A DNA stretch of 64,000 nt from Escherichia phage EC_OE_11: the sequence record OQ108497.1; one strand, written 5' to 3'. Each line of letters begins with the position of its first letter. Position 1 is the stretch's first letter. A program made the position numbers and the translations under genes. Below the pieces are notes generated by a model. The model searched no databases, had not been told where the DNA came from, and saw nothing but the letters and a program-made list of their open reading frames with translations. Positions 23,827-40,610 of the stretch are shown piece after piece.

Positions 23827-24056
23827 TCAACATTATCGTGACTACGTGAAAAACGTTCCCAAACATCTTCATCGACTCGTAAAGCTATACAAGGATAGAC
23901 GTTATCATTGATCATTTCAATTGAATAAACATCCACATTGTCTTCGTCTTCGATGAACATCATTGCAAACTGTTCTAAATGTTTCCTAATGTAATGTACA
24001 TCCTCTTCTGTAAGACCAATAACAAGATAACTTGCAACGATAACGCCATCTTTCAT
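23778..24056 (-). CDS. hypothetical protein
   Basis: 92 aa ORF. Confidence 0.25.
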   Translation of the reverse strand: MKDGVIVASYLVIGLTEEDVHYIRKHLEQFAMMFIEDEDNVDVYSIEMINDNVYPCIALRVDEDVWERFSRSHDNVECSMVMSQNNILGVLH

Positions 24057-24066
24057 CTATATCTCC

Positions 24067-24576: not shown

Positions 24577-24639
24577 ACTTGCCTCCTATTTTGTTAAACG
24601 AACTTTTATTGTAACACAGAAGAGGCTGTTTTGCAAGTG

Positions 24640-24661
24640 GAGGGGGATAATCCCCCTCTTA
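24640..24661. terminator. GC hairpin
   Basis: GAGGGGG-ATAA-TCCCCCTC stem-loop in intergenic gap. Confidence 0.35.
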
Positions 24662-24668
24662 GACTCTG

Positions 24669-25283: not shown

Positions 25284-25310
25284 TGTTTTCTCCTCTTTTA
25301 TTTCGAATAT

Positions 25311-25326
25311 GCGCCCCGAAGGGCGC
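25311..25326. terminator. GC hairpin downstream of TerD-like gene
   Basis: GCGCCC-CGAA-GGGCGC stem-loop. Confidence 0.35.
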
Positions 25327-25335
25327 TATGATTTA

Positions 25336-25932
25336 TTACTCGAACCAATCGTCGCCAGCGCCAAACGCTTTAACTACATCGTAAATGTCAAGCCCAGCTT
25401 TACCTACACCATATGCTTTCAGTTTCCATTCGCTATCTTCTCGCACCAGGGAGGCAACGTGGCAAATGGTGTTACCTGCAAGTTCTGGAGCCAAGAAGTC
25501 AAAGTCCAGCAGTTCAACATTACGTTCATCATCGAAGATTTTAAGGAAACCTTCGGTAGCGTGACCAAGGCGTTTCTTACCCGTTTCGTCATCAATAGTA
25601 ATTACGAATGCAATTTCCTGTGCTTCAGCAGAGATATTATCCAGTGTAACATCAATCTGCTCCATTTGTCCTACACCGTCACGAACATCTTCACCTGCAA
25701 AAGTAGAACGTTCAGGATCAAATTTCTGCGCGTAGCATACCAGGTGGCGAGGAGACAACAGTTCCGGCAGACCAGATGCGTTGTGTCGGCAAATCAGAGC
25801 ACTAACATCCAGATCCAGTTTTTCGTTAGATTTCCAAGAGAATTCCAGACGAATGCGTTTCAGTGCTGGTGCGATCTTTTTCAGAGAAACTTTTTCGCTA
25901 GAACCTTTTTTCAGGGAAATTTTCTGAGTCAT
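25336..25932 (-). CDS. TerD-domain protein (tellurium resistance TerD family)
   Basis: 198 aa, typical TerD size; N-terminal KISLKKG ... VSLKK; acidic Ca-binding-like segment FAGEDVRDGVGQMEQIDV; next to vWA, TelA-like and TerC-like genes. Confidence 0.6.
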   Translation of the reverse strand: MTQKISLKKGSSEKVSLKKIAPALKRIRLEFSWKSNEKLDLDVSALICRHNASGLPELLSPRHLVCYAQKFDPERSTFAGEDVRDGVGQMEQIDVTLDNISAEAQEIAFVITIDDETGKKRLGHATEGFLKIFDDERNVELLDFDFLAPELAGNTICHVASLVREDSEWKLKAYGVGKAGLDIYDVVKAFGAGDDWFE

Positions 25933-26004
25933 AATTTATTATCTCCTTTGTTGTTAATTTACGTTGTCTATTTTACTAATCTTTTCTACAAAGTCAAGCG
26001 TTTT

Positions 26005-26799
26005 TTACGCTTTTGCTCCAAATTTTTTAACCCACTCGCCAAACTCTTCGGATAACAGTTTATCGTAAAGTTCTTCATCAGACAAGGACAAATCTGCAAT
26101 ACCGATAAAATCAACATTATCGTACTCTTTTGCCAAGTCTTTCAGGAATTTAAAGTTTGCATTACCTACACCAACCATAAACCAGTAAACAGGTGTATTG
26201 CGGTGTTTGTTCAGCAAGCTACGTACTGCTGAAGTATCCATGTTCTCCCCGTCAGTTTGGAAGAAAATCATTGCAGGAGTACGATCAACTTGTGCATTAG
26301 TATCTACAACCTGTTCTACAACAGTACGTGTAACTTGTACAAGTTCTTTTTTACCAGTTAGTTTAGCAAGGAAACCTTTAGCCGGAACTTCTTCATACTC
26401 AACGACTTCGCGTGTAATATTTTTCATAGGTACACTGCCGAAGTATGTATCATAAATCTCTTGCATTACTGGAGCATAAGCTGTACCACCGTTGATGCAA
26501 ACATTAGACATGCAAGAGCCGACATAATCATCATACACATCAGCCGTTGCAGGAGGCAGTTCAAAAGAAGAACTATTGAAAGCCCACATGTCAATCTGTG
26601 CATTATCATCAAACTTCATACCAAACGGCAGCAGTTTACCTACAAAATCACTAACAGTGCCATCACGATACAGTTCACACATACTGCCCGAAATATCTAA
26701 GGCGCTACCGACACGAAGAACAACATCGTTAATCTTTTTCTTACGCAGAGATACAGTAAGAGTTTCTTGACGTTTTTTAAGACTGATTTTATTGGACAT
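26005..26799 (-). CDS. von Willebrand factor A (vWA) domain protein, TerY-like
   Basis: 264 aa; MIDAS motif LDISGSM; vWA-size domain; adjacent to TerD-like gene. Confidence 0.6.
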   Translation of the reverse strand: MSNKISLKKRQETLTVSLRKKKINDVVLRVGSALDISGSMCELYRDGTVSDFVGKLLPFGMKFDDNAQIDMWAFNSSSFELPPATADVYDDYVGSCMSNVCINGGTAYAPVMQEIYDTYFGSVPMKNITREVVEYEEVPAKGFLAKLTGKKELVQVTRTVVEQVVDTNAQVDRTPAMIFFQTDGENMDTSAVRSLLNKHRNTPVYWFMVGVGNANFKFLKDLAKEYDNVDFIGIADLSLSDEELYDKLLSEEFGEWVKKFGAKA

Positions 26800-26800
26800 A

Positions 26801-27070
26801 TTATTTCTCCTTTCTGAGTGTAATGTTAGTAACTTCTAAATCCACTTCTACTACTTCTGTATCATATAAAATACAGTTAAGTTGACCTCTTTGTGAACCA
26901 TTCAGACACATTGCTTGGTTTGTATTAACCTTAATAAACACTAAGTTTCTGAACGTATCTAAACCAGCATCTTGATAGGCAACATAATATACGAATGTAT
27001 CACCTGCGTCAAGTTCTCCAAAAGATTTAGGTTCATCTGATTTGTCGTCTTTGATATTAAATTTAAGCAC
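26801..27070 (-). CDS. hypothetical protein
   Basis: 89 aa ORF, 1 nt after vWA gene start. Confidence 0.3.
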   Translation of the reverse strand: MLKFNIKDDKSDEPKSFGELDAGDTFVYYVAYQDAGLDTFRNLVFIKVNTNQAMCLNGSQRGQLNCILYDTEVVEVDLEVTNITLRKEK

Positions 27071-27626
27071 TGTCTTCTCCTTTACCTGCTCTCAAGCCTA
27101 AATAGAAAGCCTCTCTGGTGATCTTTTGCAACTCGTTTAAAGAGATAGTTACAACTAAATCATCTTCAATTTCTAGCCTTGAGTCTTCTTCTGTCTCAAT
27201 GCAAGTATTATGCACTTTGTGGTAAGGATTGTCAACACGTTTAAATTTATTATTTTCAGTGCTGAAGAAGCAATCTGGATCTTCTTCTCCATCACCCCAG
27301 CCCTGGTTAGGGTCTTCTTCAGATCTTTCTGTTGGGATCTCACCTGTAAAGTGCTCTTCTAATACCAGAGCAATACCATCCCCAAGATCGGAAGAGAACA
27401 TCAAATTACAAACTTCTTCCCAAGGCATAGACCACTTGAATCTTTTACGATTGCCATGTTTATCTTCTTCGTTAGAGAAAACACCACCATAGCTATCATA
27501 ATTGCCATACATCTCTTCAACAACTTTACCACCTTTCAAAAGAAATAGGTAGCAAGGAGAGCCATCGAAAGAGGTAGAAAGAGCAGCATTACCAGACTCT
27601 TTGCACAAGAAACTAAAGCACCCCAT
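27063..27626 (-). CDS. hypothetical acidic protein
   Basis: 187 aa ORF. Confidence 0.3.
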   Translation of the reverse strand: MGCFSFLCKESGNAALSTSFDGSPCYLFLLKGGKVVEEMYGNYDSYGGVFSNEEDKHGNRKRFKWSMPWEEVCNLMFSSDLGDGIALVLEEHFTGEIPTERSEEDPNQGWGDGEEDPDCFFSTENNKFKRVDNPYHKVHNTCIETEEDSRLEIEDDLVVTISLNELQKITREAFYLGLRAGKGEDSA

Positions 27627-27826
27627 TATACACCAGCCTTAAGATCAATTAAAGCCAAAGTTGTTTCAGAATGTGTTTGCTCGTCTACAGGTGCAGTCAT
27701 ATGATAATACAAAAAGTCTTCGGCATCATACCAATCTGACTCTTGACCTTGTTTCCAACCATCAATGAAAGCATCTTCCATGATGGTTTGTAACTCTTCA
27801 CGAGTTAAGTGAATATCTTTACTCAT
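27626..27826 (-). CDS. hypothetical protein
   Basis: 66 aa ORF, translationally coupled. Confidence 0.25.
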   Translation of the reverse strand: MSKDIHLTREELQTIMEDAFIDGWKQGQESDWYDAEDFLYYHMTAPVDEQTHSETTLALIDLKAGV

Positions 27827-28059
27827 TACACATTCTCCTCTTTTACCAATTCCATCGTTGAACTATCAAAACCATCTTTAGAAGAATAGGTATAGACAGG
27901 ACGTAGTTCTCGCAGGACAGTGAATACATTAGGATCATCTAACCAAGCATCCTGGAGGAGAACATAACGATCTTCATTGTCGTACTGGACAGCAATCATA
28001 GAACCAGACAGTTTGTAAATTTTAATATTCATAATATATTTCTCCTTAAAGTAGACCAC
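27826..28059 (-). CDS. hypothetical protein
   Basis: 77 aa ORF, translationally coupled. Confidence 0.25.
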   Translation of the reverse strand: MVYFKEKYIMNIKIYKLSGSMIAVQYDNEDRYVLLQDAWLDDPNVFTVLRELRPVYTYSSKDGFDSSTMELVKEENV

Positions 28060-29149
28060 GTTTAACAGTTTGAATCATACCATCTTCAAGAGATTGTACT
28101 TCTTGGATGTAATCAATACGAGCAGCACGGGCTTCAGTGTTGATTCGGTTAGTTTCTTCCAACATTTTAACTAAGTTTTCTTGATCGCGACGTAGTGTTT
28201 CAATATCCAATACTTGACGATTAGCAAGTTGTGTAGCTTCAATTTGGTTTTGTGCAGCCAGATCACTACCCATTGCAATAGCAGCATTAAATTCATTCAG
28301 TACATTGTTCTGTGTATCGGCTGCTTTCTTCTGGCGTAGACTTTCAATATACATAGAAAAGTTTGCAGAGTAAGCAGGGATAACATTATTCACAATGTTA
28401 CGTGCTGATCGCATCAAACTTGCAGATACTTTCTGCATACTTTGTACACGTGGCCCCATCTGAACACACAGTAAACGCAAGGCTTTCAGGTCTGCAATAC
28501 GAATTTCAAGCAGATCCATAGTATCACGAGTACGTTGACGCTCTTCTACTTCATTTTCAGGTAGAGTATTAAGGCGAACTTCTTCTTTTTCATAAGTAGC
28601 TGTTAGAAGCTCTATATCCCTGTTTAAGCTAAGAGCATATTTTGCAATAGCCTCTTCTAAACGTTGCAGATATCGTAAAGAATCTTCTTCTTTTTTCAAG
28701 TCTGTTTGGAGTGTCTTTACCAAACCTTCAATACGATTATTGATGGTGTCAAACTCTCCAAACAAATCTTCTTTCATACCTAACACTTTCTTAACTAGCT
28801 TACCTAAACCTTTAGATTGTTTAATAGAATTAGGATCAAGTTGCTTTGCTTGCTTAATAAGTGCAGTTAAACGTTCACTCATTTCATCTCCCTGGGATGA
28901 ACGCTGGTGTTTAAGCACTTCAGCATTAAGGTTACGAAGAGTAAGTCCTGCATCAGCACCAACTTGTTCAATCTCTTCACGAGACATTGGAGGCAGCATT
29001 TGTACAGGTCGTGCAACAGCAGGTGCATATACAGGGCTTGCATCCATAGCACTTGGAGCAAACAAAGACTTACTCTTTTCTGTTGTTGCCGTGAATACAC
29101 TCATTTCAGACGGTTTGCTTTTTACGGCACTGATAAAAGGACTGGACAT
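28046..29149 (-). CDS. TelA-like (toxic anion resistance/KlaB-like) protein
   Basis: 367 aa, mostly helical/coiled-coil, size and composition like the TelA family; within TerD/TerC neighbourhood. Assigned by context and composition, not alignment. Confidence 0.4.
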   Translation of the reverse strand: MSSPFISAVKSKPSEMSVFTATTEKSKSLFAPSAMDASPVYAPAVARPVQMLPPMSREEIEQVGADAGLTLRNLNAEVLKHQRSSQGDEMSERLTALIKQAKQLDPNSIKQSKGLGKLVKKVLGMKEDLFGEFDTINNRIEGLVKTLQTDLKKEEDSLRYLQRLEEAIAKYALSLNRDIELLTATYEKEEVRLNTLPENEVEERQRTRDTMDLLEIRIADLKALRLLCVQMGPRVQSMQKVSASLMRSARNIVNNVIPAYSANFSMYIESLRQKKAADTQNNVLNEFNAAIAMGSDLAAQNQIEATQLANRQVLDIETLRRDQENLVKMLEETNRINTEARAARIDYIQEVQSLEDGMIQTVKRGLL

Positions 29150-29217
29150 TCAATTTCCTCCATATTCTTTAGTAGATGGTGATACCTCTGTACCACCATC
29201 ATAACACAAATTAAGTA

Positions 29218-30069
29218 TTAAACAAACATATCTAAATAATTTGTAGTAATAAATGCTCCATCTGCTTCCAGATTAACATAACCAGTAGCATTAGTGGTTA
29301 AGAAATCCAGATCGAAGGACTCTTTAACACCCCGTACCTCAACACGAGAGATATCGAATACAGGTAGTGTAACAGCCTCTTCGTGCAATACCGTACCTTT
29401 GTAGGTTGCCTTAATGATAAACTTGATATTACCCGTTCCAGCATCATACAAAACACTTTCAAACCCTTTGAGAGTATATTTATCACCAGAAGTGAAGTGC
29501 AAAGTTGCTTTGTTTACAGTACGTTTTTTACGAGGAGTTCCTTTCACACGTTTATGATCACTACGTTTTTTGTATTTAGGAATGAATACAAACGATACAC
29601 TCTCAAGAAAGGTATCAACATCAAGGATTTTAATATCCTCTGTTGCAGCAAATTTTGAAGTCGTTGCATCAAAATGCTTTCCCCTGCGATCATACATAAA
29701 GATATCAAACCGATCTTCTAAATCAAACAAATTATGTATCTTAATTTCAGAATGCTTGCACATTGCAGCAACCTTAAACTCTTCAAAACGTGGGTGTTCT
29801 ACCAGTTCTTCAAGTTTTACACCAAAGACAGTATATGGTTTCGAAGTTTTTTCTGGTGTTGGCATTACAGAAGCATAATCACCGATTGCGCTCTTAAAGC
29901 AAAATTGTTCTTGACCTGTATTTTTACCAACGAATTTACAGTATTCGTCATCGTGCATGCTTTCCTTGGTAGTACCAACAAACTCAAAACCATCTTTATT
30001 CTTCTCAAGAATTTCTTGATTAAAGATCCAACCTTCCAGGCGATACACTTTACCAACTTCTAGTTTCAT
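29218..30069 (-). CDS. hypothetical protein
   Basis: 283 aa ORF between TelA-like and lipoprotein genes. Confidence 0.3.
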   Translation of the reverse strand: MKLEVGKVYRLEGWIFNQEILEKNKDGFEFVGTTKESMHDDEYCKFVGKNTGQEQFCFKSAIGDYASVMPTPEKTSKPYTVFGVKLEELVEHPRFEEFKVAAMCKHSEIKIHNLFDLEDRFDIFMYDRRGKHFDATTSKFAATEDIKILDVDTFLESVSFVFIPKYKKRSDHKRVKGTPRKKRTVNKATLHFTSGDKYTLKGFESVLYDAGTGNIKFIIKATYKGTVLHEEAVTLPVFDISRVEVRGVKESFDLDFLTTNATGYVNLEADGAFITTNYLDMFV

Positions 30070-30104
30070 CTGTTTCTCCTTCTTGTTTAATCTGTATTAA
30101 ATTA

Positions 30105-30695
30105 TTAACGACGACGTGAGCTACTAAAACTACGTTTCGACGAAGAATAACTTTTCGAAGACTTACTATAAGAGCTAATAGGACTTGAGTAAGACTTACG
30201 AGCAGAGTAATCACTATTCACTTTTGTTGTTGATGGGCGTGAATACGTTTGTACACTTTGCTGCTTAATTGTGTTTTGTTTAGTGGTTGTATATGTATTT
30301 ACAGGTTTATCATAAAAACTACGCTTTTGTGTTGTATATGATTTACTGTTAGTTGTAGGAGCAGCATTGTTATTAATAATGGTTGTATTGCTACCACCAT
30401 CTCTATAACCACCACCGCCACTATTACCACTCAACATATGACCAAGAAGCATACCTGTAGCAAATTCACCTACACCAGAAGAACTACTACCGCCTCCTTG
30501 CACAACAACTGTTGAAGGTTGTGCAGGTGCTGCTTGAACAACTTGAGGTGCAGGTTGATTTACATATTGTTCATCTACCATCTGATTTGGTGTTTGTTGG
30601 TAACGTTGATTTTGTACATTTTCAGAATCATCACAACCTACCAGCAATACACTACCTAATACAACTGCAACAATAAAAGATTTAATGTTTTTCAT
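30105..30695 (-). CDS. lipoprotein with Ser/Gln/Tyr-rich low-complexity region
   Basis: Start set at ATG 30695 behind GAGAGGG RBS; signal peptide plus lipobox (SVLLVGC); long Q/S/Y/T-rich tail. Confidence 0.45.
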   Translation of the reverse strand: MKNIKSFIVAVVLGSVLLVGCDDSENVQNQRYQQTPNQMVDEQYVNQPAPQVVQAAPAQPSTVVVQGGGSSSSGVGEFATGMLLGHMLSGNSGGGGYRDGGSNTTIINNNAAPTTNSKSYTTQKRSFYDKPVNTYTTTKQNTIKQQSVQTYSRPSTTKVNSDYSARKSYSSPISSYSKSSKSYSSSKRSFSSSRRR

Positions 30696-30888
30696 TTGTA
30701 ACCCTCTCATTTAAAGTCTCAACACAATTTTTAAAATCCCTAGAGAAACAATACATCTGTTCTCCGTTCCTGTTGATAGTAATTGTATGATTATCAATGT
30801 ATGTTGTCAAGATAAAAATCAAACAAAATAACCCTAAAGCAAAACAAATATTTTCAAACAGAATCCAAAGAACACGTAAAACCACCAT
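30682..30888 (-). CDS. small membrane protein
   Basis: 68 aa with hydrophobic FALGLFCLIFILTTYI segment. Confidence 0.3.
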   Translation of the reverse strand: MVVLRVLWILFENICFALGLFCLIFILTTYIDNHTITINRNGEQMYCFSRDFKNCVETLNERVTNEKH

Positions 30889-30904
30889 CAGATCACCTCA
30901 ACAA

Positions 30905-30922
30905 AGCCCCCGAAGGGGCTTA
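30905..30922 (-). terminator. GC hairpin downstream of TerC-like gene
   Basis: AGCCCC-CGAA-GGGGCT stem-loop. Confidence 0.4.
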
Positions 30923-30927
30923 ATGAA

Positions 30928-31905
30928 TTAAGCAACAGCCTGGTCTTCTTTTTCAGGGAAGATTAAACTTGCAATGACACCCAGCCCCAGAGTACCTAAC
31001 ACAATATACATACTGATCGTCGGATCAATGTGTGCTGGCAGGAAACTCACTTTTGCGTGCAGAGTTTCTGCAAACGGGTGATACATCAGTTTTACACCCA
31101 CAAATACCAGGACTACGATAACTGCTTTCTCCAGATGAACCAAATATTTCAGTGCAACACTAAGGACAAAGAACAGAGCACGTAGACCTAAAATTGCACA
31201 CAGCATTGAAGAAAATACAAGCAGAGGTTCTTGTGTCACTGCAATTACTGCTGGAACAGAGTCTACTGCAAAGATTACGTCAACCATTTCCATTACAAAC
31301 ACACAAACCAGAGCCGGAGTTGCTACACGAACACCATTTTTGATTGTGAAGAACTTCTCACCATCCATCTGATCAGATACAGGGAACAGCTTACGAACAA
31401 TGCGAGTAGCCCAGTGTTTAGAGTAATCAACTTCTGCGTCATTATCTCCAGCGAATACCATTTTAGCTGCACAGAAAAGGATGACCGCACCGAAGAAGAT
31501 ATTAACATACCAGCCCAAACTCAACAAATAAGTGCCTACTGCTACAAACACACCTCGGAAGACAATCGCACCTGCAATACCCCAAAGTAGAATCTTGTGT
31601 TGCAAGTGTGTGCTTTTAATACCAAAACTTGCGAATACTGCCACAAATACTACTAAGTTATCTACAGAAAGAGATTTCTCCAACACATATCCACTCAAGA
31701 ACAAGCTCGCAAAATCAGCACCGTGCTGGAAGTATACAAAACCATAGTAGGCTAATGATACCCCAATCCAGAAAATTGACCAACCAATTGCAGATTTAAA
31801 TGAAATTTCTTTGTTTTCTCTGTGTCCAAAGAAATCAATACAAATCGACAACACTAAAATACCCACTAAAACAACCACATCAATAATTGGGAAACCCAGT
31901 TGCAT
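30928..31905 (-). CDS. TerC-family integral membrane protein
   Basis: 325 aa, multiple TM helices; duplicated TerC signature (LEKSLSVDNLVVF and EMVDVIFAVDSVPAVIAVT). Confidence 0.7.
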   Translation of the reverse strand: MQLGFPIIDVVVLVGILVLSICIDFFGHRENKEISFKSAIGWSIFWIGVSLAYYGFVYFQHGADFASLFLSGYVLEKSLSVDNLVVFVAVFASFGIKSTHLQHKILLWGIAGAIVFRGVFVAVGTYLLSLGWYVNIFFGAVILFCAAKMVFAGDNDAEVDYSKHWATRIVRKLFPVSDQMDGEKFFTIKNGVRVATPALVCVFVMEMVDVIFAVDSVPAVIAVTQEPLLVFSSMLCAILGLRALFFVLSVALKYLVHLEKAVIVVLVFVGVKLMYHPFAETLHAKVSFLPAHIDPTISMYIVLGTLGLGVIASLIFPEKEDQAVA

Positions 31906-31982
31906 TCTTATCTCCTCTTTAATGCGGAGGACAATCCTCCGCTCTATGTCTTATACTATAAACTGTTTTTAAAGAAAGTCAA

Positions 31983-32231
31983 CTAGTTCAGTTCTGTAAT
32001 TTTAAGTTTATCTTCTTTGTTAATGATAGGGAAAGCTACAGCATCACCTACGTCATCAATAAAGCAAATAGCAAGACCACCTTCCACTTTACTAATCTGA
32101 CCCTTAAAGGCGCGATACGGGGCAGGAACTTTATCTCCATCTTCAAGGATAATAGCCTCGTAAACCTTGCCGATAGTACAATCACGAGTGTTTCTAAATT
32201 TTTCAAGCACTTCAACATTTACTTTACGCAT
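31983..32231 (-). CDS. hypothetical protein
   Basis: 82 aa ORF. Confidence 0.3.
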   Translation of the reverse strand: MRKVNVEVLEKFRNTRDCTIGKVYEAIILEDGDKVPAPYRAFKGQISKVEGGLAICFIDDVGDAVAFPIINKEDKLKITELN

Positions 32232-32246
32232 ATAAAAAATCCTCTC

Positions 32247-32453
32247 TTATTTGTTAGATTGAAAGATACCACGAAGTACCGCAAGAATGAACGTCACACA
32301 GACTACACTCCAAAACGTTACAGGAACATGATGCCAGTCTAAACCGATAATGTCAATCATATAGTTGTATGCTAAAAGCAGCAGCCAACTAGGGATTAAC
32401 ACAATCAAAAACACAACAATAAAACAACCTAATACTGCTAAAACACCTGCCAT
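32247..32453 (-). CDS. small membrane protein
   Basis: 68 aa, two hydrophobic helices. Confidence 0.3.
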   Translation of the reverse strand: MAGVLAVLGCFIVVFLIVLIPSWLLLLAYNYMIDIIGLDWHHVPVTFWSVVCVTFILAVLRGIFQSNK

Positions 32454-32462
32454 ACTTTCTCC

Positions 32463-33179
32463 TTATTTCAGTTTGTAAACAATTACATTTAAACCTTTGT
32501 TTACTAGAGTTTCTTCGATCATAAGTTTTACAATATTCCAAGAACCTCCAGCCAAACCACAACCAAGCATTGGTAAACCTACAATTTTACCGCCTGAAGA
32601 TACAACATCGTCTCCCATACTATCTAGCGCATTGTAGATAGCTTCATAATTCAGATCACGCTTACCTTCCTCACGACTACTATAACCATATTGTCCATAT
32701 AAATTATAAATTGTCAAATTGTTTTCTGTATATTTGGTAAACGTACCTAATTTTTTATAATCACCACGTTTAGTGGCACAATCTGCTTTAAACGCACCAG
32801 GCCACTTGCTTTTAATTTTTGGTGCAATACCACTACCCATAGTGCAAAAACAGTTACAGCAGTGTGCTATAGCGTCTATATCGCCTCTCTCGGCTGCTGC
32901 TAAAAGATCACCGTATACCTCAACGATACCTGCTGGATAACTTGTTACAATTTCATCTTCCCAGTACATTTTCTCTACACCACCGATCAGTGCAAAGTTT
33001 TGTGTAATGCGATCATCAATATAGTTAAGACCTGAAACATACACAGCGTATTCATCCTGTGCTGTAATACCTTGCACACGAATTCTTAAGACACCATCTT
33101 TATCTGTTGCTACACGCCCAAAATCTTTTTCTGTAATATTGGTGATAGGATCTCCGAAAGTCATTACTTTATTAGACAT
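32463..33179 (-). CDS. macro-domain-like protein (ADP-ribose binding/processing)
   Basis: Start set at ATG 33179 (MSNKVM), 2 nt after PRTase stop; motif GDLLAAAERGDIDAIAHCCNCFCTMGSGIA resembles the macro-domain N-terminal core (DAIVNAAN ... GGGV). Confidence 0.45.
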   Translation of the reverse strand: MSNKVMTFGDPITNITEKDFGRVATDKDGVLRIRVQGITAQDEYAVYVSGLNYIDDRITQNFALIGGVEKMYWEDEIVTSYPAGIVEVYGDLLAAAERGDIDAIAHCCNCFCTMGSGIAPKIKSKWPGAFKADCATKRGDYKKLGTFTKYTENNLTIYNLYGQYGYSSREEGKRDLNYEAIYNALDSMGDDVVSSGGKIVGLPMLGCGLAGGSWNIVKLMIEETLVNKGLNVIVYKLK

Positions 33180-34029
33180 AATAATCCCCTTTAACATTAG
33201 ATTTGTTGATAATGTTGCTTTCAAAAAATTGACGTAGGAAATCAAAGTTCTCTTTGTATTTTTCAATGTTATTGTAGCCTTCTGCAAGGCAACCAAAGAA
33301 CAGTTGTTCTACATAATACAAAGGAAGCTGTGAAAGTGCAATTTTAAAATCAACTTCGCTTTGACTCATTAGATACTTAATAGGACGAACCAAACATTTA
33401 GCATCAGTTTCTTGCTTAATCATTTTAATAAAAGCTGCCAGGTTATTGATATAGTTGAAGTTAAGTGCAGCTTCGGTGTTGGCTTCTGTACCTTCATACT
33501 TTGCAAAGTACAGGAAAAACGTATCGTTTTCAACACCTTCTTTGTCTAAAATTTCAATAAGTTTTTCTTCGTGTGTTCCTGTAATATTAACATCATCAAT
33601 GAAAATCAGAGTTTTATTACCCCAGAAATCACGATTGATAGAGAAAGTGTCACCATCGATCAAAGCCTTACGATCTTCTTTGCTAAGAAATCCATAATCA
33701 TTGATATAGCTCACTTTACGATGAACGATATCCCACTCCACTGGTTTACCACCTTTGATAGAGATTAGGTAGTTGAGGTGATCTACAAAATGTTCAGATA
33801 ACACTGTAGCTGCATTTTTCACATAGTTATATGGAGATGGAATAACAACAAAACTTTCATTTACCAGTCGTTCTTCATACTTAGAAAAGAAACTTTCAGC
33901 CAGAATGCGCCCCATTCTTTTTGCTGCCTGGTTACTACCAAACTTTAGTTTGGAATAATCTGCAATGTTAAATTTTGCTTCCTTCAGGTTAGTAAAAGTA
34001 TTAGCAAAATGTTGAATTTGATTACGCAT
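33172..34029 (-). CDS. type I phosphoribosyltransferase-like protein
   Basis: 285 aa; PRPP-binding-like motif LIFIDDVNITGTHEE (hydrophobic run, DD, then T-G-T). Confidence 0.5.
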   Translation of the reverse strand: MRNQIQHFANTFTNLKEAKFNIADYSKLKFGSNQAAKRMGRILAESFFSKYEERLVNESFVVIPSPYNYVKNAATVLSEHFVDHLNYLISIKGGKPVEWDIVHRKVSYINDYGFLSKEDRKALIDGDTFSINRDFWGNKTLIFIDDVNITGTHEEKLIEILDKEGVENDTFFLYFAKYEGTEANTEAALNFNYINNLAAFIKMIKQETDAKCLVRPIKYLMSQSEVDFKIALSQLPLYYVEQLFFGCLAEGYNNIEKYKENFDFLRQFFESNIINKSNVKGDYYV

Positions 34030-34696
34030 TAATAAGTTCCTCTTTTTTAAGTTTAGCCAACAAGTTTTCTGGATTAATAATATGACAGAACTTCATCCCT
34101 ATGTCAACAGCTTTTCCATCATAGATCAAACTATCTCCAACGTGTAAGATCTCCTCTGGTGCGAGATCAAACGTTACCATTTCATCAAAAGAGAGTTTAA
34201 AAAACCTAGGATCTGGTTTACACAAGCAAAACTCATCAGAAAAATGCATAAAGTCGAATGGTAATTTTGTCAAGCCAGAATATACAGCTAAGAAACTACC
34301 AGGTACAAAATTGGTATTGCTCTTAATACTCAAAGAATAGGTTGAACTTAGCTCTTCCAACTTCTTGCAAAGTTCAGGGTTTAATGTTGGAGGATGTTTT
34401 ATAAACATTGCTAAACAGTCTCTTTTTAACCCATCCACCTTATCAAGATCAATGTTCAAATGAGCAGAAAGTGTTTCCCAAGCATTTCTAGATGTTCCAC
34501 AAATGCCTTTTTCTGCTTTTAAATCCAAGAGAGTTTTTACCTCTTTATATACGGTAGCTGCTTCTACCTCAGAACAAGAGGCATACTCGGCAATAACCTT
34601 GTTGCGTTCTTCTGCATACAAAGGATTAGCAGTAATAAGAGTATTCCATACATCAAAAGAAATATGCTTAACAGTCATTTTTAATCCTCCGTCCAA
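34022..34696 (-). CDS. HAD-superfamily hydrolase-like protein
   Basis: 224 aa in ORF track (true start probably the internal ATG at MTVKH); motif ISFDVWNTL resembles HAD motif I (DxDxT); C-terminal HVGDSLIYDGK resembles motif IV. Confidence 0.45.
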   Translation of the reverse strand: MDGGLKMTVKHISFDVWNTLITANPLYAEERNKVIAEYASCSEVEAATVYKEVKTLLDLKAEKGICGTSRNAWETLSAHLNIDLDKVDGLKRDCLAMFIKHPPTLNPELCKKLEELSSTYSLSIKSNTNFVPGSFLAVYSGLTKLPFDFMHFSDEFCLCKPDPRFFKLSFDEMVTFDLAPEEILHVGDSLIYDGKAVDIGMKFCHIINPENLLAKLKKEELINA

Positions 34697-34836
34697 AAGA
34701 ATATCATCTGCTTAATTTTATTGATCTCTTGATGTAGTAACTTTCCAGCATGTAATTGATCTTTAATATTGACAGCAAGAATTTCAAGCTCCGTCAGTTT
34801 TTCTTGGATAGCTTTATATTCATCATCTGTAAGCAT
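34681..34836 (-). CDS. hypothetical small protein
   Basis: 51 aa ORF (below ORF-track cutoff), AAGGGGAAGAAA upstream of ATG. Confidence 0.25.
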   Translation of the reverse strand: MLTDDEYKAIQEKLTELEILAVNIKDQLHAGKLLHQEINKIKQMIFFWTED

Positions 34837-34847
34837 TTTCTTCCCCT

Positions 34848-35051
34848 TTAGAATGGTAATCTTTGTATGTCACTTGTCCCCACACCAAGAAGTCTAGCAA
34901 TATCCTTATCTAAAAGCAACTCTTTTTGTTCTAAAATGTTAATCAGATCTCCTAATACTTCTTTAATGTCACGATCATTTTTAGCAACGTGACCACCTGC
35001 GGTATCAACTTTATCTTTAAAAATAAAATAATGATCCATAATACCCTCCAT
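34848..35051 (-). CDS. hypothetical protein
   Basis: 67 aa ORF. Confidence 0.25.
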   Translation of the reverse strand: MEGIMDHYFIFKDKVDTAGGHVAKNDRDIKEVLGDLINILEQKELLLDKDIARLLGVGTSDIQRLPF

Positions 35052-35058
35052 ATAAATA

Positions 35059-35080
35059 AAGGAGGCTTTCGCCTCCTTTT
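35059..35080 (-). terminator. rho-independent terminator-like hairpin after AAA ATPase gene
   Basis: AGGAGGC-TTTC-GCCTCCT, followed on minus strand by TTTATTTAT. Confidence 0.5.
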
Positions 35081-35085
35081 ATCAC

Positions 35086-36246
35086 TTAGTAAGAACGACC
35101 ACCAAACACATACTCTGTGTAGTTTTTACGTTCTTTGTTTTTAATAACAACTTCAATGTTGTTACCTTTATCATCGGTGAACATAAAGTGATAACCGTCA
35201 CCACCCATTGTACGGATGTGTTTTTCATCATACGTTAGCAAGATACGGTCTACACCCCAGTAGTAGTCACCTTCTTCATCTTTATCTTCTACGGTAACGA
35301 TCCCTTCCATTTCAGGAAGATGCTCTTCACCTAGTTTATGGTCTACAGCTACAACATAACGATTACCACTAAACAAACCTTGTGCTGTCATACCGTCAAT
35401 ATCGGTATCTGCCGAAACATCTCCTGTACGATCTACACCGTTAACTTTCAGAAGTTTAACCTCTTTTGCAGCATAGCGGTGTTCAGTAATACTGATACCC
35501 ATTAGTGCAAGTGCATCAGAGAATTTGTCATTAGGGTAACGGTTAAGTTCTTCTACTAATGACTGAACAATATCAAAGTTCAAATCCACGGAGAGATTAT
35601 AAAGCGTTTCAAAGTCTGGTAAGAAGGCTTTGTTCTCCAGATTTTTAGCCAGATAATCATCCATAGTAGCTTTAGGTAGTTTCTTATAGCTAAAACTGTA
35701 GAAAATACGGCTAGGACGATTACGCAAAAATTCTGATACATAACCATCATTTTTAGTCAATACAAACAGTTTGTCGTAGCCACCAACACCATCCAGCAGG
35801 GTAAGCAAACCATCTTGTGCATCTTTTTCAGCATACAGTTTATCAAATTCATCGATCATAATCATTACAGGTTGTGTGATTTTAGACATAAAATTGATAA
35901 AGCCTTCACCATTAAAAGCACTGCCGATAGAAATAGTAGGAATACCCATTTCACGAAGAGCAGAAGACAGCATTTTAGCTTGCAAAGTTTTACCGCTACC
36001 TTTCGTACCTTCAAGGAGAACACCTGTGTTTTTACCTTTGCGGCTAAGGAACGTTTTGATAATACGTTCTGATTTATCATCAGTATCACCGTATGTTACT
36101 GAAGGGACTTCCATATCGTTTTTAGGATACAGGAAGAACTCACCACTTTGAGTAACACCTACACCAAAAGTTCCTGCTGGAATTTCTTCAATATCTGTAC
36201 CAGATTTCTGACGCAGGAAGATTTGATTGCCGAATACTGTAAACAT
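35086..36246 (-). CDS. AAA-type ATPase (paralog 1)
   Basis: 386 aa; Walker A GTKGSGKT; Walker B-like IMIDEFDK; paralogous to 49973..51100 along most of the length. Confidence 0.5.
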   Translation of the reverse strand: MFTVFGNQIFLRQKSGTDIEEIPAGTFGVGVTQSGEFFLYPKNDMEVPSVTYGDTDDKSERIIKTFLSRKGKNTGVLLEGTKGSGKTLQAKMLSSALREMGIPTISIGSAFNGEGFINFMSKITQPVMIMIDEFDKLYAEKDAQDGLLTLLDGVGGYDKLFVLTKNDGYVSEFLRNRPSRIFYSFSYKKLPKATMDDYLAKNLENKAFLPDFETLYNLSVDLNFDIVQSLVEELNRYPNDKFSDALALMGISITEHRYAAKEVKLLKVNGVDRTGDVSADTDIDGMTAQGLFSGNRYVVAVDHKLGEEHLPEMEGIVTVEDKDEEGDYYWGVDRILLTYDEKHIRTMGGDGYHFMFTDDKGNNIEVVIKNKERKNYTEYVFGGRSY

Positions 36247-36266
36247 AGTTTTCTCCTCTATTTAAT

Positions 36267-36737
36267 TTAGTCAGATTCCCAAATGTTGTCTTTCTTAACC
36301 CACATTCGTTGATTATCTGAACCTCTATAACGTTTCGTTGTTGGTTGATTCATATCATACTTACCATCTATCACTATGTCAACCAGTTTTTTAATTTTTT
36401 CTGGAATTTCTTCAAAAAGATATCCTGTATATAAAACAATATCTTTTTTGTTTCCAAAACAATCTCTTACCTTCTCAAGAACATACTCTACAGTGTCAAT
36501 GTTCTCTTTGTCAAGAGGTTCACCACCTAAAACTGTTAATCCTTTAATGAAAGGTCGAGATAAATCTTCCAAGATAAGATCTAATGTTTCAGCAGTGAAC
36601 TCTTGTCCGTAGTTATACGACCAGGCTTTCTGGTTAAAGCAGCCACGGCAACCGTGGCTGCAACCGCTCACCCACAAAGAGCATCTTACACCGTCACCGT
36701 TGAGCATGTCAACAGGTTCATATCCGGCGTAATTCAA
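36267..36737 (-). CDS. nrdG: anaerobic ribonucleoside-triphosphate reductase activating protein
   Basis: 156 aa; radical-SAM cluster motif CSHGCRGCFN; directly downstream of nrdD with 4 nt overlap. Confidence 0.8.
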   Translation of the reverse strand: MNYAGYEPVDMLNGDGVRCSLWVSGCSHGCRGCFNQKAWSYNYGQEFTAETLDLILEDLSRPFIKGLTVLGGEPLDKENIDTVEYVLEKVRDCFGNKKDIVLYTGYLFEEIPEKIKKLVDIVIDGKYDMNQPTTKRYRGSDNQRMWVKKDNIWESD

Positions 36738-38533
36738 AAGTGTTTCTCCCTTTCTAGTACCTCTTGCATTTTACCTTTATTATAAGGGCGAGAGTTAGGG
36801 GCAGAAAGGTATCCTGACACTCTTCTGATCACAGATATGGATTCTTCTTCATGATTACCGCAACTTGGACACTCGAAGCCTTTAGCCGTTGCTTTAAATT
36901 CACCATGAAAACCACATTTGAAACACTGATCTACAGGTTGGTTCACGCCAAAATAAGGAATTTTGTTGTAGGCATAATCTACAAGAGTTTCCAGTGCTTG
37001 CAAGTTATTTTTAAGGTTTGGTGTTTCTACATAACCTATGTTCCCACCATTACTAATTTGTGCAAAACCTTCCTCATAATCCCATTTTTGGAACGGGGTA
37101 GTGTGCATCCATACAGGTTGATGGAAAGAGTTTGTCAAGTAGTCACGATCAATAGAACCAGGATAGCGATCATTTAACGCTTTGGCAAATTTATAGCACA
37201 AGGATTCTGCTGGTGTTCCATACAAACTAAAAGCTAAACCAGAACGTTCTTTAAATGTGCAACAGATATCCTTCATATATTGAAGGATGTTTTTACCCAT
37301 TGCTTTTGGATTGGTGTTATTTGGGTATAAAATTTCCATAGCTTCTGCTAAACCTACATAACCGATACTAATAGAGGCATAACCACCCTCAAATAGTTTA
37401 CCAATCTCTTCATTAGCTTCTAGTCGAGCTAAAGCCCCTTCCATAAACAATGTAGGGTTTTGAGATGCTTTGGTATGTCTAATACGGTTAACACGTAGCA
37501 TATGTGCCTTATACGCCATCTCCATATGTTGTTCCAACAGTTCAGTAAATAAGATGCCCTTTTCACGGGACTCTGCTGCAATGATAGGTAAGTTTAAAGA
37601 AACCACGCCTAAGTTGAAACGACCATCATATTTTTCACCTTGCTCTGTTGCATAATATGACAAGAAACTACGGCAACCCATGCTTGTGACGCGACCATCT
37701 GAAGATCCTGTAACTTCTTTGTTTAAAGGTACAGAGATAAAATCAGGATAAATGCGTTCAGCACAACACTCCATTGCCAGTTGCTTCAAATCATAGTTTG
37801 GATCGCCAGCTTTCATGTTAACACCATCTTCCAAGAAGAAGATAACTTTAGGAAACACAGGAGTTACCCTATCTTTTCCTAATCCTTGTTTGTGCACCAT
37901 TAGGTAGTTTTTAGTGATCATTCTACCAAAAGCAGAGGTATCCAAGCCTAAACTAATTGTTATAAAAGGTGACTGACCATTTACACTCATCAAGGTGTTC
38001 ACCTGGTAGATTAAAGTTTGCATTGCATCGTAAACCTGTTTATCTACCATACGCATAGCAATATCATAATCGCCAACATCGGCATAGATTTTATTAAAAC
38101 TTGCTTTAACGTATTGACTAAGCCCAGTATCAATATGTGCACAAGTTTGTCCACCATATTGGCTAGAAGCTACTGCTTGAATAATTTGAGTTAGGACAGT
38201 AGTTGCTACACCGATAGATTTTGGTTTTTCAATATGTGCATTACCAATACGGAAACCGTTCTCAAGCATATCTTGGTAATTTACCAGGCAACAATTAGTT
38301 AGAGGTGAGAGTAAATAATCTAAATCGTGAATATGACCATACCCACTTTTATGCCATTCTGCCAGATCTTCCGGTAAAATATGGGTCATTGCCATGTGCT
38401 TGCTTAGGATACCTGCTAGTAAGTCTCGGTGAGTATTAACAATCATTGCAGGTTTGTTTGCATTTTCACGAGTAAATTCTTCGGATGTTTGTTCGAGGAA
38501 TCCGATTACATCCTCATATAGTTTTTGGGTCAT
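36734..38533 (-). CDS. nrdD: anaerobic ribonucleoside-triphosphate reductase (class III)
   Basis: Start set at ATG 38533 (MTQKLYEDV) behind GGAGG RBS; C-terminal Zn-ribbon (CFKCGFHGEF ... CPSCGNHEE) and glycyl-radical motif RRVSGYL. Confidence 0.85.
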   Translation of the reverse strand: MTQKLYEDVIGFLEQTSEEFTRENANKPAMIVNTHRDLLAGILSKHMAMTHILPEDLAEWHKSGYGHIHDLDYLLSPLTNCCLVNYQDMLENGFRIGNAHIEKPKSIGVATTVLTQIIQAVASSQYGGQTCAHIDTGLSQYVKASFNKIYADVGDYDIAMRMVDKQVYDAMQTLIYQVNTLMSVNGQSPFITISLGLDTSAFGRMITKNYLMVHKQGLGKDRVTPVFPKVIFFLEDGVNMKAGDPNYDLKQLAMECCAERIYPDFISVPLNKEVTGSSDGRVTSMGCRSFLSYYATEQGEKYDGRFNLGVVSLNLPIIAAESREKGILFTELLEQHMEMAYKAHMLRVNRIRHTKASQNPTLFMEGALARLEANEEIGKLFEGGYASISIGYVGLAEAMEILYPNNTNPKAMGKNILQYMKDICCTFKERSGLAFSLYGTPAESLCYKFAKALNDRYPGSIDRDYLTNSFHQPVWMHTTPFQKWDYEEGFAQISNGGNIGYVETPNLKNNLQALETLVDYAYNKIPYFGVNQPVDQCFKCGFHGEFKATAKGFECPSCGNHEEESISVIRRVSGYLSAPNSRPYNKGKMQEVLEREKHF

Positions 38534-38553
38534 TAATCCTCCGTGGAAAATAA

Positions 38554-38576
38554 AAGCCAGCATTAAGCTGGCTTTA
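38554..38576 (-). terminator. rho-independent terminator-like hairpin
   Basis: AAGCCAGC-ATTA-AGCTGGCTTT; on minus strand followed by TTTTATTTTCC; between 38623 stop and nrdD RBS. Confidence 0.5.
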
Positions 38577-38622
38577 GGGTGGATCTTTATTTTAAATCTT
38601 TTTCGTAAGATTGTCCTTGATC

Positions 38623-39573
38623 TTAGTCAAGGTTTTTGGTAATACGTGTACAACCGTCAGAAGTCAAACCGTCAACTTGAGTTTCCCAAGTACCATGAAT
38701 ATTTCGGAACAATGTTGTTACACCTTTTGGTTCATTAATAATGATTGCCATAACAAGTTTAGGATCGATAACAGACATAATCTTTTCCTCAATACCCTCT
38801 GTAATAACGTTATTGCGCACAATATTAATTGCATCTTCTTGTACAGTAAGAACACTTACGTTCTTAAGAGTATATACCTGCTGTGTAGTGTAAATGATAC
38901 GAACATAACTTACAGAACGAGTAGGCACAGGTTTACGCGGTCGGCGAAAACGTGGTTTTGGTGAAGATTCAGTTTTACTTTCATCTTTTGAATAATACTC
39001 CTCAAACAGTTTAGTAAATGTTTTTACATCAACTACAAACCGATCTTTCCGATATGGAGAATTCTTATGTGCACCATTAATACCACTGTTTTCATCGAAG
39101 AAAGTAATGTTTTCTTCAGTTGAATACATTAGATAATGATCTGCATTGTTCCAATGTGGTTGTGGACAACGAGAATTACAAACGGAAAGCAGATAATTAA
39201 TATTTTCTTTCGTGGCCTCAGTATCCAGGAAACACGTATTATGCACAGTCAGTTGTACTTTTTCAGCCATATCCTTTTCTTTATCCCCATTGGTAAGATA
39301 TTCAGTACGAAGAATTTCCAGAAAATTTTCAGGTGTTACTTCCATAAATGTATATTCAGGATGAAGTTCCATATATTCAAATCCACAACCATCTAATTGC
39401 TGTAGAAAGTTAGGGTAGAAGAACAAATCATTAACACTGTGAATCAGATCATTGATTTCTGCTTCAGTTGTGTAACCAAAACTTTTGTGAATTGCCTCGT
39501 TAAGAGTATGCAGGATACCCATCTCTTCTGCTGCTTTTTTAACTTCCAGTTTATTAGCGTAAAATGCAATCAT
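38623..39573 (-). CDS. hypothetical protein
   Basis: 316 aa ORF; no recognisable motif. Confidence 0.35.
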   Translation of the reverse strand: MIAFYANKLEVKKAAEEMGILHTLNEAIHKSFGYTTEAEINDLIHSVNDLFFYPNFLQQLDGCGFEYMELHPEYTFMEVTPENFLEILRTEYLTNGDKEKDMAEKVQLTVHNTCFLDTEATKENINYLLSVCNSRCPQPHWNNADHYLMYSTEENITFFDENSGINGAHKNSPYRKDRFVVDVKTFTKLFEEYYSKDESKTESSPKPRFRRPRKPVPTRSVSYVRIIYTTQQVYTLKNVSVLTVQEDAINIVRNNVITEGIEEKIMSVIDPKLVMAIIINEPKGVTTLFRNIHGTWETQVDGLTSDGCTRITKNLD

Positions 39574-39590: not shown

Positions 39591-40025
39591 TTAGTTTAAA
39601 ATTTCTTTTGCAATGGTAGAAGCAAGTTTTCCATCATATTGATTCGGATACTCTGCTTTAAGGTGTTTCATCATATCTGGCATTTTCTTGCCTGTCAAGG
39701 CAAATTCTTCAGCAATAGCTCGAAGATCATCTTCAGATAGCATTTCTGGCAAATATTTTTCCAGAGCGGTGATATCACGCATAGCTCGCTCACATTTGCT
39801 AATGGAGGCATTAACTTTCTTAAGTGAGTCTAGTTCCTCTTTAGCGTGTGCAATACCAATCTTAACAATGTTAATCATAATATCGTCTTCTGATTTGTTT
39901 AGATTTGCCTTTTGAGTACGAGCAAGGTCAAACTCACCAATAATATTAGTTAACAAAGCAAAAGCACCCTTATCGGTTGTACGTGCTAAGATACGATCTG
40001 CTTTCATTTGTGTCACAATAGACAT
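39591..40025 (-). CDS. GatB/YqeY-domain protein
   Basis: 144 aa; pattern LEKYLPEMLSEDDLRAIAEEFALTGKKMPDMMKHLKAEYPNQYDGKLASTIAKEILN matches the YqeY family consensus. Confidence 0.55.
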   Translation of the reverse strand: MSIVTQMKADRILARTTDKGAFALLTNIIGEFDLARTQKANLNKSEDDIMINIVKIGIAHAKEELDSLKKVNASISKCERAMRDITALEKYLPEMLSEDDLRAIAEEFALTGKKMPDMMKHLKAEYPNQYDGKLASTIAKEILN

Positions 40026-40037
40026 TCTATTCTCCTC

Positions 40038-40610
40038 TTATTTGCTAATGCTTTGAGTTTTGTTTACAACACGGTTTATTGCCAGTGAAGCCCTAGGCTC
40101 TGCAATACCTGTTGCATAGATATAAGGATGACCTTTTGGAGACTCCCTCATACCGAATGAACCTAATTCTAAACCATATTCATCCTCTACGTCAACCCCA
40201 ATATTAGTGGGTACTAAATATGTTTTAACTCCATAATAAGTAGAGAAGAAACAGCGCATAGCGTTAGCATACTCTTCAATTGTAGCATCAGGGTAGAACT
40301 CAATCAACTCCAATTTCAAGAAAATATTAAAATGGGTATCATCTAAATTTTCTTCTGTACGGTAACATGGTGTTAGTGCCATATACGGATTACCTGCTGC
40401 AAATTCAAAACCATCCTTCTCCATTTGCAGGAAAGATTGTTCTGCACTAGCTACATAGTATTTACCGTTAGGATGCCCTAATGGGCGATCCTCTTTATTT
40501 TCTGGTAGTGTGTACGCCAGTATATCAGTATCCACGAGATATGGAACTTCTAACATTTGTGCAAATCGACCATAGTAATCAATAGCTTGAGCTATTACTG
40601 CAACATTCAT
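40038..40610 (-). CDS. hypothetical protein (possible class II aaRS-like core motifs)
   Basis: 190 aa; LTPCYRTEE (fRxE-like) and ATGIAEPR (GxGxxxR-like) are weakly reminiscent of class II aminoacyl-tRNA synthetase motifs 2 and 3; tentative. Confidence 0.25.
   Translation of the reverse strand: MNVAVIAQAIDYYGRFAQMLEVPYLVDTDILAYTLPENKEDRPLGHPNGKYYVASAEQSFLQMEKDGFEFAAGNPYMALTPCYRTEENLDDTHFNIFLKLELIEFYPDATIEEYANAMRCFFSTYYGVKTYLVPTNIGVDVEDEYGLELGSFGMRESPKGHPYIYATGIAEPRASLAINRVVNKTQSISK

Follow-up and report, generated by a model that had tools for sequence, protein, structure and literature searches.

Two adjacent units, probably, in Escherichia phage EC_OE_11: a macrodomain of the AdfM/Tk.4 family and a HAD–phosphoribosyltransferase pair beside Ter genes

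Does a phage macrodomain that is packed against a phosphoribosyltransferase (PRTase) and a HAD-like hydrolase act in one pathway with them, or do neighbors of different function simply lie side by side? This question is raised by a 64,000-nucleotide stretch of Escherichia phage EC_OE_11 (OQ108497.1), hereafter the window, in which the open reading frame at 32463..33179 encodes a 238-residue macrodomain protein directly downstream of the PRTase and HAD genes; these, like every gene treated here, are on the minus strand. A first-pass annotation made from the sequence alone had joined the three genes into an enzymatic pathway for the synthesis or breakdown of a ribosylated small molecule or nucleic-acid adduct. 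We instead favor, with a probability of roughly 0.6, two adjacent functional units, one an AdfM-type macrodomain and the other a HAD–PRTase_3 arm of the tellurite-resistance (Ter) system. Folds, motifs, homologies, gene overlaps and distribution among genomes are observed here, whereas the enzymatic activities, DarT2 as the target, the metabolite and its tie to the Ter proteins are inferred from them. More than 50 Escherichia phages of the phi92-like genus Justusliebigvirus (Stephanstirmvirinae) match the 5.4-kb stretch around the macrodomain gene at 98-99% identity, PaulScherrer/Bas60 being the best of them (98.8%). The macrodomain, phosphoribosyltransferase and HAD-like labels are already present in GenBank for this lineage, as the PaulScherrer record names a 'putative macrodomain protein', a 'putative phosphoribosyltransferase' and a 'putative HAD-like superfamily protein'.

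Sequence comparison and structure prediction agree on a macro fold in the 238-residue protein far beyond chance, which bears out the macro-domain-like core described in the first-pass annotation; its motif DAIAHCCNCFCTMGSGIA spans residues 102-119. Pfam PF01661 (Macro) matches residues 106-217 (31.5 bits against a cut-off of 22, e-value = 1.9e-7), and sequence matches in the PDB include SCO6735 (e-value = 2e-15), BT1257 (e-value = 1e-14), TARG1 (e-value = 3e-10), DarG (e-value = 7e-4) and Poa1p (e-value = 4e-3). The DarG models of PADLOC (e-value = 5.7e-14) and NCBIfam (e-value = 3e-13) also match, in their macro part only. An AlphaFold2 model built from 48 sequences has the macro fold, with a per-residue confidence (pLDDT) above 90 over residues 85-238, and a Foldseek search with this model found TARG1 (4j5r; e-value = 8e-12, TM score 0.88) as well as BT1257, DarG and SCO6735. 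The same search against the PDB gave 196 matches at an e-value of 0.001 or below, and all 50 listed are macrodomains. The structural objection named in the first-pass annotation, a predicted model without this fold, is thereby answered. Taken together with homology to Tk.4, these searches assign the macrodomain to residues 86-238 (32466..32924).

The alignment further indicates which kind of macrodomain this is. H106, N109, Q163, G165 and the loop G206-C-G-L-A-G-G212 match catalytic-type residues of SCO6735, with Q163, N109 and H106 standing at the places of its Q85, N27 and H24. The catalytic lysine (K84 in TARG1, K80 in DarG) is replaced by Gln163 and the aspartate (D125 in TARG1) by Ala210; the TARG1 sequence in this alignment was checked against the known K84/D125 numbering. 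Judged by these residues, the protein belongs to the TARG1/DarG/SCO6735 (ALC1-like) class and, within it, to the Gln type of SCO6735. SCO6735 has been shown to hydrolyze thymidine-linked ADP-ribosylated DNA in a reaction that requires Q85 and N27 and proceeds without the catalytic lysine of TARG1 and DarG (PMC9411070). Both SCO6735 and BT1257 (PDB 5e3b and 2fg1) share with the window protein the H, the N, the Q-x-G and the GCGLAGG elements and, like it, have neither the K84 nor the D125 of TARG1, although they are bacterial housekeeping proteins rather than phage proteins and the identity is only about 30%. If the phage enzyme follows the SCO6735 scheme, Q163 would position the distal ribose, N109 would hold Q163 in place and the GCGLAGG loop would grip the diphosphate, and catalysis would proceed without the lysine used by DarG and TARG1.

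As to its likely function, the macrodomain is homologous to Tk.4 of the T-even phages, with 34% identity to the RB3 ortholog over 155 residues (e-value = 4e-21) and the catalytic Gln common to both (YNLYTQY in Tk.4, YNLYGQY here). Our tblastn search of 50,697 phage records found this macrodomain family in 2987 of them, T-even tk.4 genes included. In T4, knockout of tk.4 sensitizes the phage to DarTG2, and this gene, the only one required for resistance, has been named adfM (2025 preprint, bioRxiv 10.1101/2025.11.20.689424). A 2026 paper reaches the same conclusion for the AdfM macrodomain of PhiKZ, which strips the ADP-ribose mark on thymidine directly from DNA (PMC13309987). Phages Bas60-62, which are of the same lineage as the window phage, encode the NADAR protein AdfN^Bas60, which neutralizes DarT1 but not DarT2 (PMC11825919). 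A NADAR (AdfN) gene was not found among the 10 window reading frames scanned, in a scan that was not exhaustive. Given that the macrodomain is homologous to T4 AdfM and that the NADAR protein of the lineage does not counter DarT2, we infer by analogy with T4, which has both AdfN and AdfM, that the macrodomain may cover the DarT2 gap. The window gene adds a member, unusual for its fusion, to a phage family whose role was only recently worked out in T4. The first-pass annotation had remarked that macrodomains also serve as antitoxins in DarTG systems, and this remark touches on what at present seems the best functional lead.

We hypothesize that the 238-residue protein is an orphan AdfM/Tk.4 macrodomain of the DarG type with an extra N-terminal domain, and that its most likely role in the infected cell is to bind single-stranded phage DNA at ADP-ribosylated thymidine. 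Hydrolysis of the ribose–base bond would then reverse the mark set by host DarT2 and allow replication to proceed. Were this the case, Bas60-62 would resist DarTG2 by means of the macrodomain gene, complementing their anti-DarT1 NADAR protein, which is a cheap and concrete prediction. The two-enzyme anti-DarT arsenal of T4 would also extend to another phage family, and some 3000 phage genes that are now labelled 'phosphatase' would deserve a better label.

Like AdfM (T4 Tk.4 and PhiKZ gp104), the window protein is a macrodomain of the DarG/TARG1 class that stands alone in a phage, with no DarT partner, and its lineage, as T4 does, also has a NADAR AdfN. Unlike AdfM, it carries the extra 85-residue N-terminal domain, and its activity is a predicted one. 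Its gene adjoins Ter genes rather than lying near tk as in T4, and the protein does not have the DarG-like lysine (K78) of PhiKZ AdfM. A full DarG antitoxin or a DarTG cassette was considered as well and is ruled out, as the protein has no C-terminal DarT-binding domain and there is no DarT gene nearby. In both DarG models the match is to the first 145 positions, at the N-terminal end, and the window protein carries Gln in place of the catalytic Lys of DarG. It reaches only 49.8 bits, against a cut-off of 250, with the NCBIfam DarG equivalog NF048014; of the 338 positions of this model only 4-147 are covered, and the macrodomain takes up the very end of the protein. None of the neighboring genes matched DarT in Pfam or PADLOC.

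As the start of the macrodomain gene we prefer the ATG at 33179 because it has a good Shine-Dalgarno sequence (AAAGGGGA) 6 nt upstream, whereas the start given in the PaulScherrer GenBank record, an ATG 18 nt further upstream, has none. The ATG at 33179 overlaps the PRTase stop by 8 nt (ATGnnTAA type, ATGTCTAA), and an overlap of the same kind and length joins the PRTase start to the HAD stop (ATGCGTAA). The translational coupling of the macrodomain, PRTase and HAD genes described in the first-pass annotation is thus upheld, but not through the gap of 2 nt that it had placed between the PRTase stop and the macrodomain ATG. A gap of this size is found instead at the HAD start, where the ATG at 34678, preceded by the Shine-Dalgarno sequence GGAGGA, lies 2 nt past the stop of a 51-residue gene. 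Across the whole block, which runs from a 63-residue gene through the 51-residue, HAD, PRTase and macrodomain genes to a 68-residue membrane protein and an 82-residue gene, the successive spacings are 11, 2, -8, -8, 9 and 15 nt. The block is flanked by a terminator-like hairpin (35058..35079) on one side and, on the other, by a sigma-70-like promoter and hairpin before the TerC gene (31924..31982). Matches in our promoter and terminator scan occur at chance frequency across the region, so the operon boundaries are drawn from gene spacing alone and co-transcription of this tightly packed block is plausible to probable.

Turning to the two upstream genes, the PRTase (33172..34029) has a ComF-like type I fold and matches Pfam PRTase_3 ('ComF-like') with an e-value of 1.5e-41. 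Its intact PRPP (phosphoribosyl pyrophosphate) loop, LIFIDDVNITGTHE, is invariant among phage and metagenome homologs that are 44-82% identical to the query and have a mean column identity of 56%. Helicobacter pylori ComFC (PDB 7p0h) is only 12% identical, and, unlike this protein, the phage PRTase has a C-terminal helical domain and stands in no competence context. The HAD protein (34022..34678; motif I FDVWNT) is an HAD-IA family hydrolase according to Pfam Hydrolase (e-value = 5e-6), the HAD-IA subfamilies of NCBIfam and PDB 2om6 (e-value = 2e-8), an entry that has the same DVWNT motif. In every locus recovered, both from the GTDB genome collection (21 of 21) and from viruses (18 of 18), the gene directly preceding the PRTase encodes a HAD homolog, and we regard HAD and PRTase_3 as an obligate, conserved pair. 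In 45 aligned HAD partners, the window protein and 44 others from loci L002-L048, motif I reads SFD[VLF][WY]xT with the nucleophile Asp kept, and motifs II-IV are kept as well, including the Mg-binding GDxxxxD.

The genomic surroundings of this pair point to the Ter system, a context that the first-pass annotation had missed. Within 9 kb of the pair the window encodes a TerD-domain protein (25336..25932; Pfam TerD, e-value = 5.1e-28), a vWA-TerF-like protein (26005..26799; PF10138, e-value = 7e-39), a TelA-like protein (28046..29149; Pfam TelA, e-value = 5.1e-34) and an integral membrane protein of the TerC/Alx family (30928..31905; Pfam TerC, e-value = 1.2e-38; NCBIfam TIGR03718, 322.8 bits against a cut-off of 246.4). 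Ter genes occur within 10 kb of the pair in two thirds of the viral loci (12/18), and in Pedococcus and two metagenome-assembled genomes (MAGs) of Bacteroidales/Bacteroidetes the pair stands among TerD paralogs and TerC/DUF475, vWA-TerF or TerY genes. The Ter PRTase–HAD metabolite was reportedly put forward as a computational prediction by Anantharaman, Iyer and Aravind in 2012. The Aravind group describes the Ter system as a PRTase and HAD arm that makes a nucleoside derivative, together with TerB/TerD sensors, TerC and TelA/TerF, and notes the module in some jumbo phages and certain related smaller phages (PMC7824862). The HAD–PRTase_3 pair is a known module whose chemistry is a computational prediction.

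In line with that description, the pair would be the small-molecule synthesis arm of a phage Ter system. With PRPP as the donor, the PRTase would place 5-phosphoribose on a base-like acceptor, after which the HAD protein would cleave off or pass on a phosphoryl group, and the resulting nucleoside-like compound may act together with the phage TerD, vWA-TerF, TelA and TerC proteins. Acinetobacter phage ME3 and bacterial clusters have been described with the same combination of PRTase_3 and HAD with TerD, TerC, TelA and vWA-TerF, but here it is found in a non-jumbo coliphage of about 148 kb, and a macrodomain gene (in relatives also a MazG-like gene) is inserted between the pair and TerC. The enterobacterial ter locus differs in having ATP-grasp, TRSP and lyase genes, none of which were seen here. 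The product of the Ter PRTase–HAD arm has been a question since 2012, and phage inhibition by ter genes since the 1990s; a compact, conserved pair in a genetically tractable phage that infects K-12 would be a convenient, if indirect, place to test Ter chemistry.

The N-terminal part of the macrodomain protein has a history of its own. Most homologs, at about 150 residues, are confined to the C-terminal 63% of the 238-residue query, and the remaining 85 or so residues (32925..33179) form an orphan domain. In relatives with genomes of about 150 kb, the PRTase gene is set apart from a short macrodomain gene by a further gene (L002 8844..9398; L033 9502..10062; L034 4024..4581). Over its first 85 residues, the window protein is 29% identical to the N-terminus of the 184-residue product of this gene in L002 (e-value = 7e-7). 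The C-terminus of the 184-residue protein carries, in these relatives only, the MazG-like motif ETGECADW...GECADVIICALDLAL by alignment; Pfam MazG matches at 0.016, and two members are called 'NTP pyrophosphatase' by JGI. The window phage has no MazG half, and its N-terminal domain continues in frame into the macrodomain. By this homology, the N-terminal 85 residues are a remnant of the neighboring gene whose MazG-like half was lost. The same fusion occurs in the same context in a second diverged lineage (P0122/L049, 53% identity), which argues that it has been maintained and is not accidental. The domain has no Pfam match, its AlphaFold2 confidence is low (pLDDT 32-61), and it gave six matches among 1.84 billion representative sequences, two of which are repeat-protein artefacts. 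A likeness to the hemocyanin beta-sandwich in a PDB profile search (e-value = 0.04) is weak and was treated as chance.

Whether the macrodomain belongs with the pair can be judged from how the two are distributed. No macrodomain adjoins the pair in 20 of the 21 genome-collection loci, the exception (L007) being a phage-like MAG contig, nor in 13 of the 18 viral loci. An adjacent macrodomain was seen only in Stephanstirmvirinae and close relatives of about 150 kb (L002, L003, L007, L028, L031-L034, L036 and L049); in Rhizobium, Ensifer, Bacteroidales, Pedococcus and jumbo phages the pair stands without one and is followed by DUF2828 or Ter genes. Conversely, the macrodomain family was found in 2987 phage records versus 156 for the PRTase; in T-even phages it sits between vs and tk, and in Vequintavirinae it overlaps an RNA ligase gene. 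Given this phyletic pattern, the macrodomain is probably not part of the HAD–PRTase unit, and the three-enzyme pathway of the first-pass annotation is not supported.

Several observations weigh against our two-unit reading. The window protein has only about one third of its residues in common with T4 Tk.4, and the two lysines with which SCO6735 positions DNA (K34 and K89) are both Ser in it. The overlap of the closest homologs in Vequintavirinae with an RNA ligase gene is a hint of RNA-related or soluble ADP-ribose substrates. As for the predicted metabolite of the Ter PRTase and HAD, our literature search found no experimental test of it. The dephosphorylation step is further questioned by the residue at Asp+2 of HAD motif I, which is Trp in 44 of the 45 sequences and Tyr in the remaining one. 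This Asp is the general acid/base of phosphatases, and its loss is said, following Burroughs et al. in 2006, to be typical of dehalogenases or of members whose leaving groups do not have to be protonated (P-type ATPases, phosphonatase). A nucleotide 5'-phosphatase step is thus uncertain, and the uniform loss of the residue cautions against a textbook 'nucleotide to nucleoside' reading. Finally, the order HAD–PRTase–macrodomain is kept over Justusliebigvirus, Phapecoctavirus and unclassified relatives of about 150 kb, and the macrodomain is fused to a domain of the neighboring gene in two diverged lineages; the retained synteny and the fusion therefore leave some room for a lineage-specific link of the macrodomain to the pair.

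Such a link could take the form of a single pathway in which HAD, PRTase and macrodomain make or degrade a ribosylated small molecule or adduct; the PRTase might build a phosphoribosyl compound, the HAD protein dephosphorylate it and the macrodomain process an ADP-ribose-like intermediate. The 8-nt start/stop overlaps at both junctions would fit this, but overlaps and tight packing are general in the whole block, genes of unrelated function included. The synteny extends across both Stephanstirmvirinae genera and their relatives, to 65% identity for the PRTase and 50% for the macrodomain, and what stands between PRTase and macrodomain in the relatives is the N-domain and MazG-like gene of a nucleotide-processing kind, its N-domain being fused to the macrodomain here and in L049. 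Set against this are the many loci in which the pair has no adjoining macrodomain, a macrodomain family that is about 20 times more widespread among phages than PRTase_3 and stands in unrelated contexts in T4 and Vequintavirinae, and a PRPP-derived product without the ADP moiety that a macrodomain could hold, so that we consider a single pathway quite unlikely. A more elaborate reading, to which we give a slim chance, is a lineage-specific writer–eraser set. Here PRTase, atypical HAD, N-domain/MazG-like protein and macrodomain would all work on a (phospho)ribosyl mark of a nucleic acid or nucleotide signal. The substrate of the PRTase would be, as with ComFC, single-stranded DNA or a nucleotide instead of a free base, and the mark would be altered or taken off by the macrodomain, which the shared N-domain would guide to its target. 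If true, this would be the first defined chemistry for the Ter system. The first-pass annotation had also raised NAD salvage, which we considered in the form of a salvage or reconstitution of NAD+ by the three genes against NAD-depleting defences. Phage NAD reconstitution pathways do exist (NARP1-3, with the composition of NARP3 taken from the same source; PMC13464706), and some include a PRTase. However, the PRTase here is of the ComF-like type I and not of the NadV/NAMPT or Namat type, the block contains no adenylyltransferase, ADPR-pyrophosphokinase, PnuC, NadR or Prs-like kinase, and the same pair is found in bacterial Ter clusters. We reject NAD salvage on the type of the PRTase and the absent partner enzymes, and give it next to no chance.

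A different objection concerns the macrodomain itself, which could hydrolyze soluble ADP-ribose derivatives rather than DNA adducts, with ADP-ribose-1''-phosphate from NAD-dependent RNA repair, O-acetyl-ADP-ribose or ADP-ribose-based immune signals as candidates. Many records label the family 'phosphatase', and the ADP-ribose-1''-phosphatase Poa1p is among the structural matches, although its match is weaker than those of TARG1, BT1257, DarG and SCO6735. The Vequintavirinae homolog that overlaps the RNA ligase gene (SSBI34) and the jumbo-phage HAD–PRTase_3 pairs near RNA ligase, 2H, CCA-adding and Nudix genes could be read in the same sense, but the scanned neighborhood contained neither KptA/Tpt1 nor a sirtuin. 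Aravind and colleagues have argued that viral macrodomains favor soluble ADP-ribose derivatives (PMC7824862, PMC9503650), whereas the sole experiments within this subfamily, those on T4 Tk.4, and the closest solved relative, SCO6735, both point to ADP-ribosylated thymidine in DNA. We therefore regard a soluble substrate as unlikely, and an AdfM-type activity on DNA remains the preferred reading for the macrodomain.

The remaining genes of the block are small. The first after the hairpin is the 63-residue gene (34848..35039; phrog_17780, matching from residue 5 of the listed reading frame), with the Shine-Dalgarno sequence GGAGGG ahead of its ATG at 35039, followed by the 51-residue gene (34681..34836; phrog_24275). 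In relatives, a 200-residue gene (L002 6745..7347) lies directly upstream of the HAD gene, at the place taken here by the 51-residue gene. Downstream of the macrodomain gene, at a distance of 9 nt, is the gene for a hydrophobic 68-residue predicted membrane protein (32247..32453; phrog_16065), whose position is kept in relatives by tblastn synteny. The 82-residue gene (31983..32231; phrog_17459) is, by its spacing, the last of the block. The terminator-like hairpin, AAAGGAGGC-gaaa-GCCTCCTTT with a T-rich tail (35058..35079), is a consensus match only; it separates the small-gene and HAD block from an upstream gene for an AAA+ ATPase (35086..36246; Pfam AAA, e-value = 1.2e-6; phrog_2376, e-value = 5.7e-104), the position of which is conserved among close relatives.

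Altogether, the full phage-borne Ter cluster extends over 25336..36246 and comprises TerD, vWA-TerF-like, TelA, TerC/Alx, HAD, PRTase_3 and AAA+ ATPase genes with small genes interspersed; most genes of the cluster are 'hypothetical' in the PaulScherrer annotation. The promoter-like element before TerC (TTGACT-16-TATAGT) is accompanied by a perfect 8-bp hairpin in the 77-nt TerC leader, GCGGAGGA-ttg-TCCTCCGC; base pairing of its CCTCC arm with the Shine-Dalgarno sequence GAGGAG further downstream is conceivable. A yybP-ykoY manganese riboswitch, which controls bacterial Alx/TerC genes, was not matched by Rfam in 24000..39000. In jumbo phages, including Xanthomonas phage XaC1, the HAD–PRTase_3 pair is followed by a DUF2828/DUF7788 protein (L004 8967..10562; L006 8941..10527) in a neighborhood that looks RNA-repair-like, with RNA ligase, 2H phosphoesterase, CCA-adding enzyme, Nudix and YqeY genes. 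Pedococcus and a Peribacteria MAG have two tandem PRTase_3 paralogs after the HAD gene (L027 7908..9628; L026 1911..3604).

Further from the block, a YqeY-like (GatB C-terminal-like) gene and a neighbor annotated as 'putative tRNA synthetase' lie a few kilobases upstream (39591..40610), and YqeY is also found with the HAD–PRTase_3 pair in the jumbo phages of L004 and L006. A run of glycosyltransferase-like genes on the minus strand (20142..23318), labelled 'disaccharide synthase/glycosyltransferase' in PaulScherrer, includes one gene (22059..22745) with a weak, sub-threshold match to TET-associated glycosyltransferase (TAGT, 6.8e-5). Lastly, the UvrD/Rep-family helicase gene at 40869..42644 is uninterrupted here (591 residues), while its PaulScherrer ortholog, bas60_0082, bears an intein.

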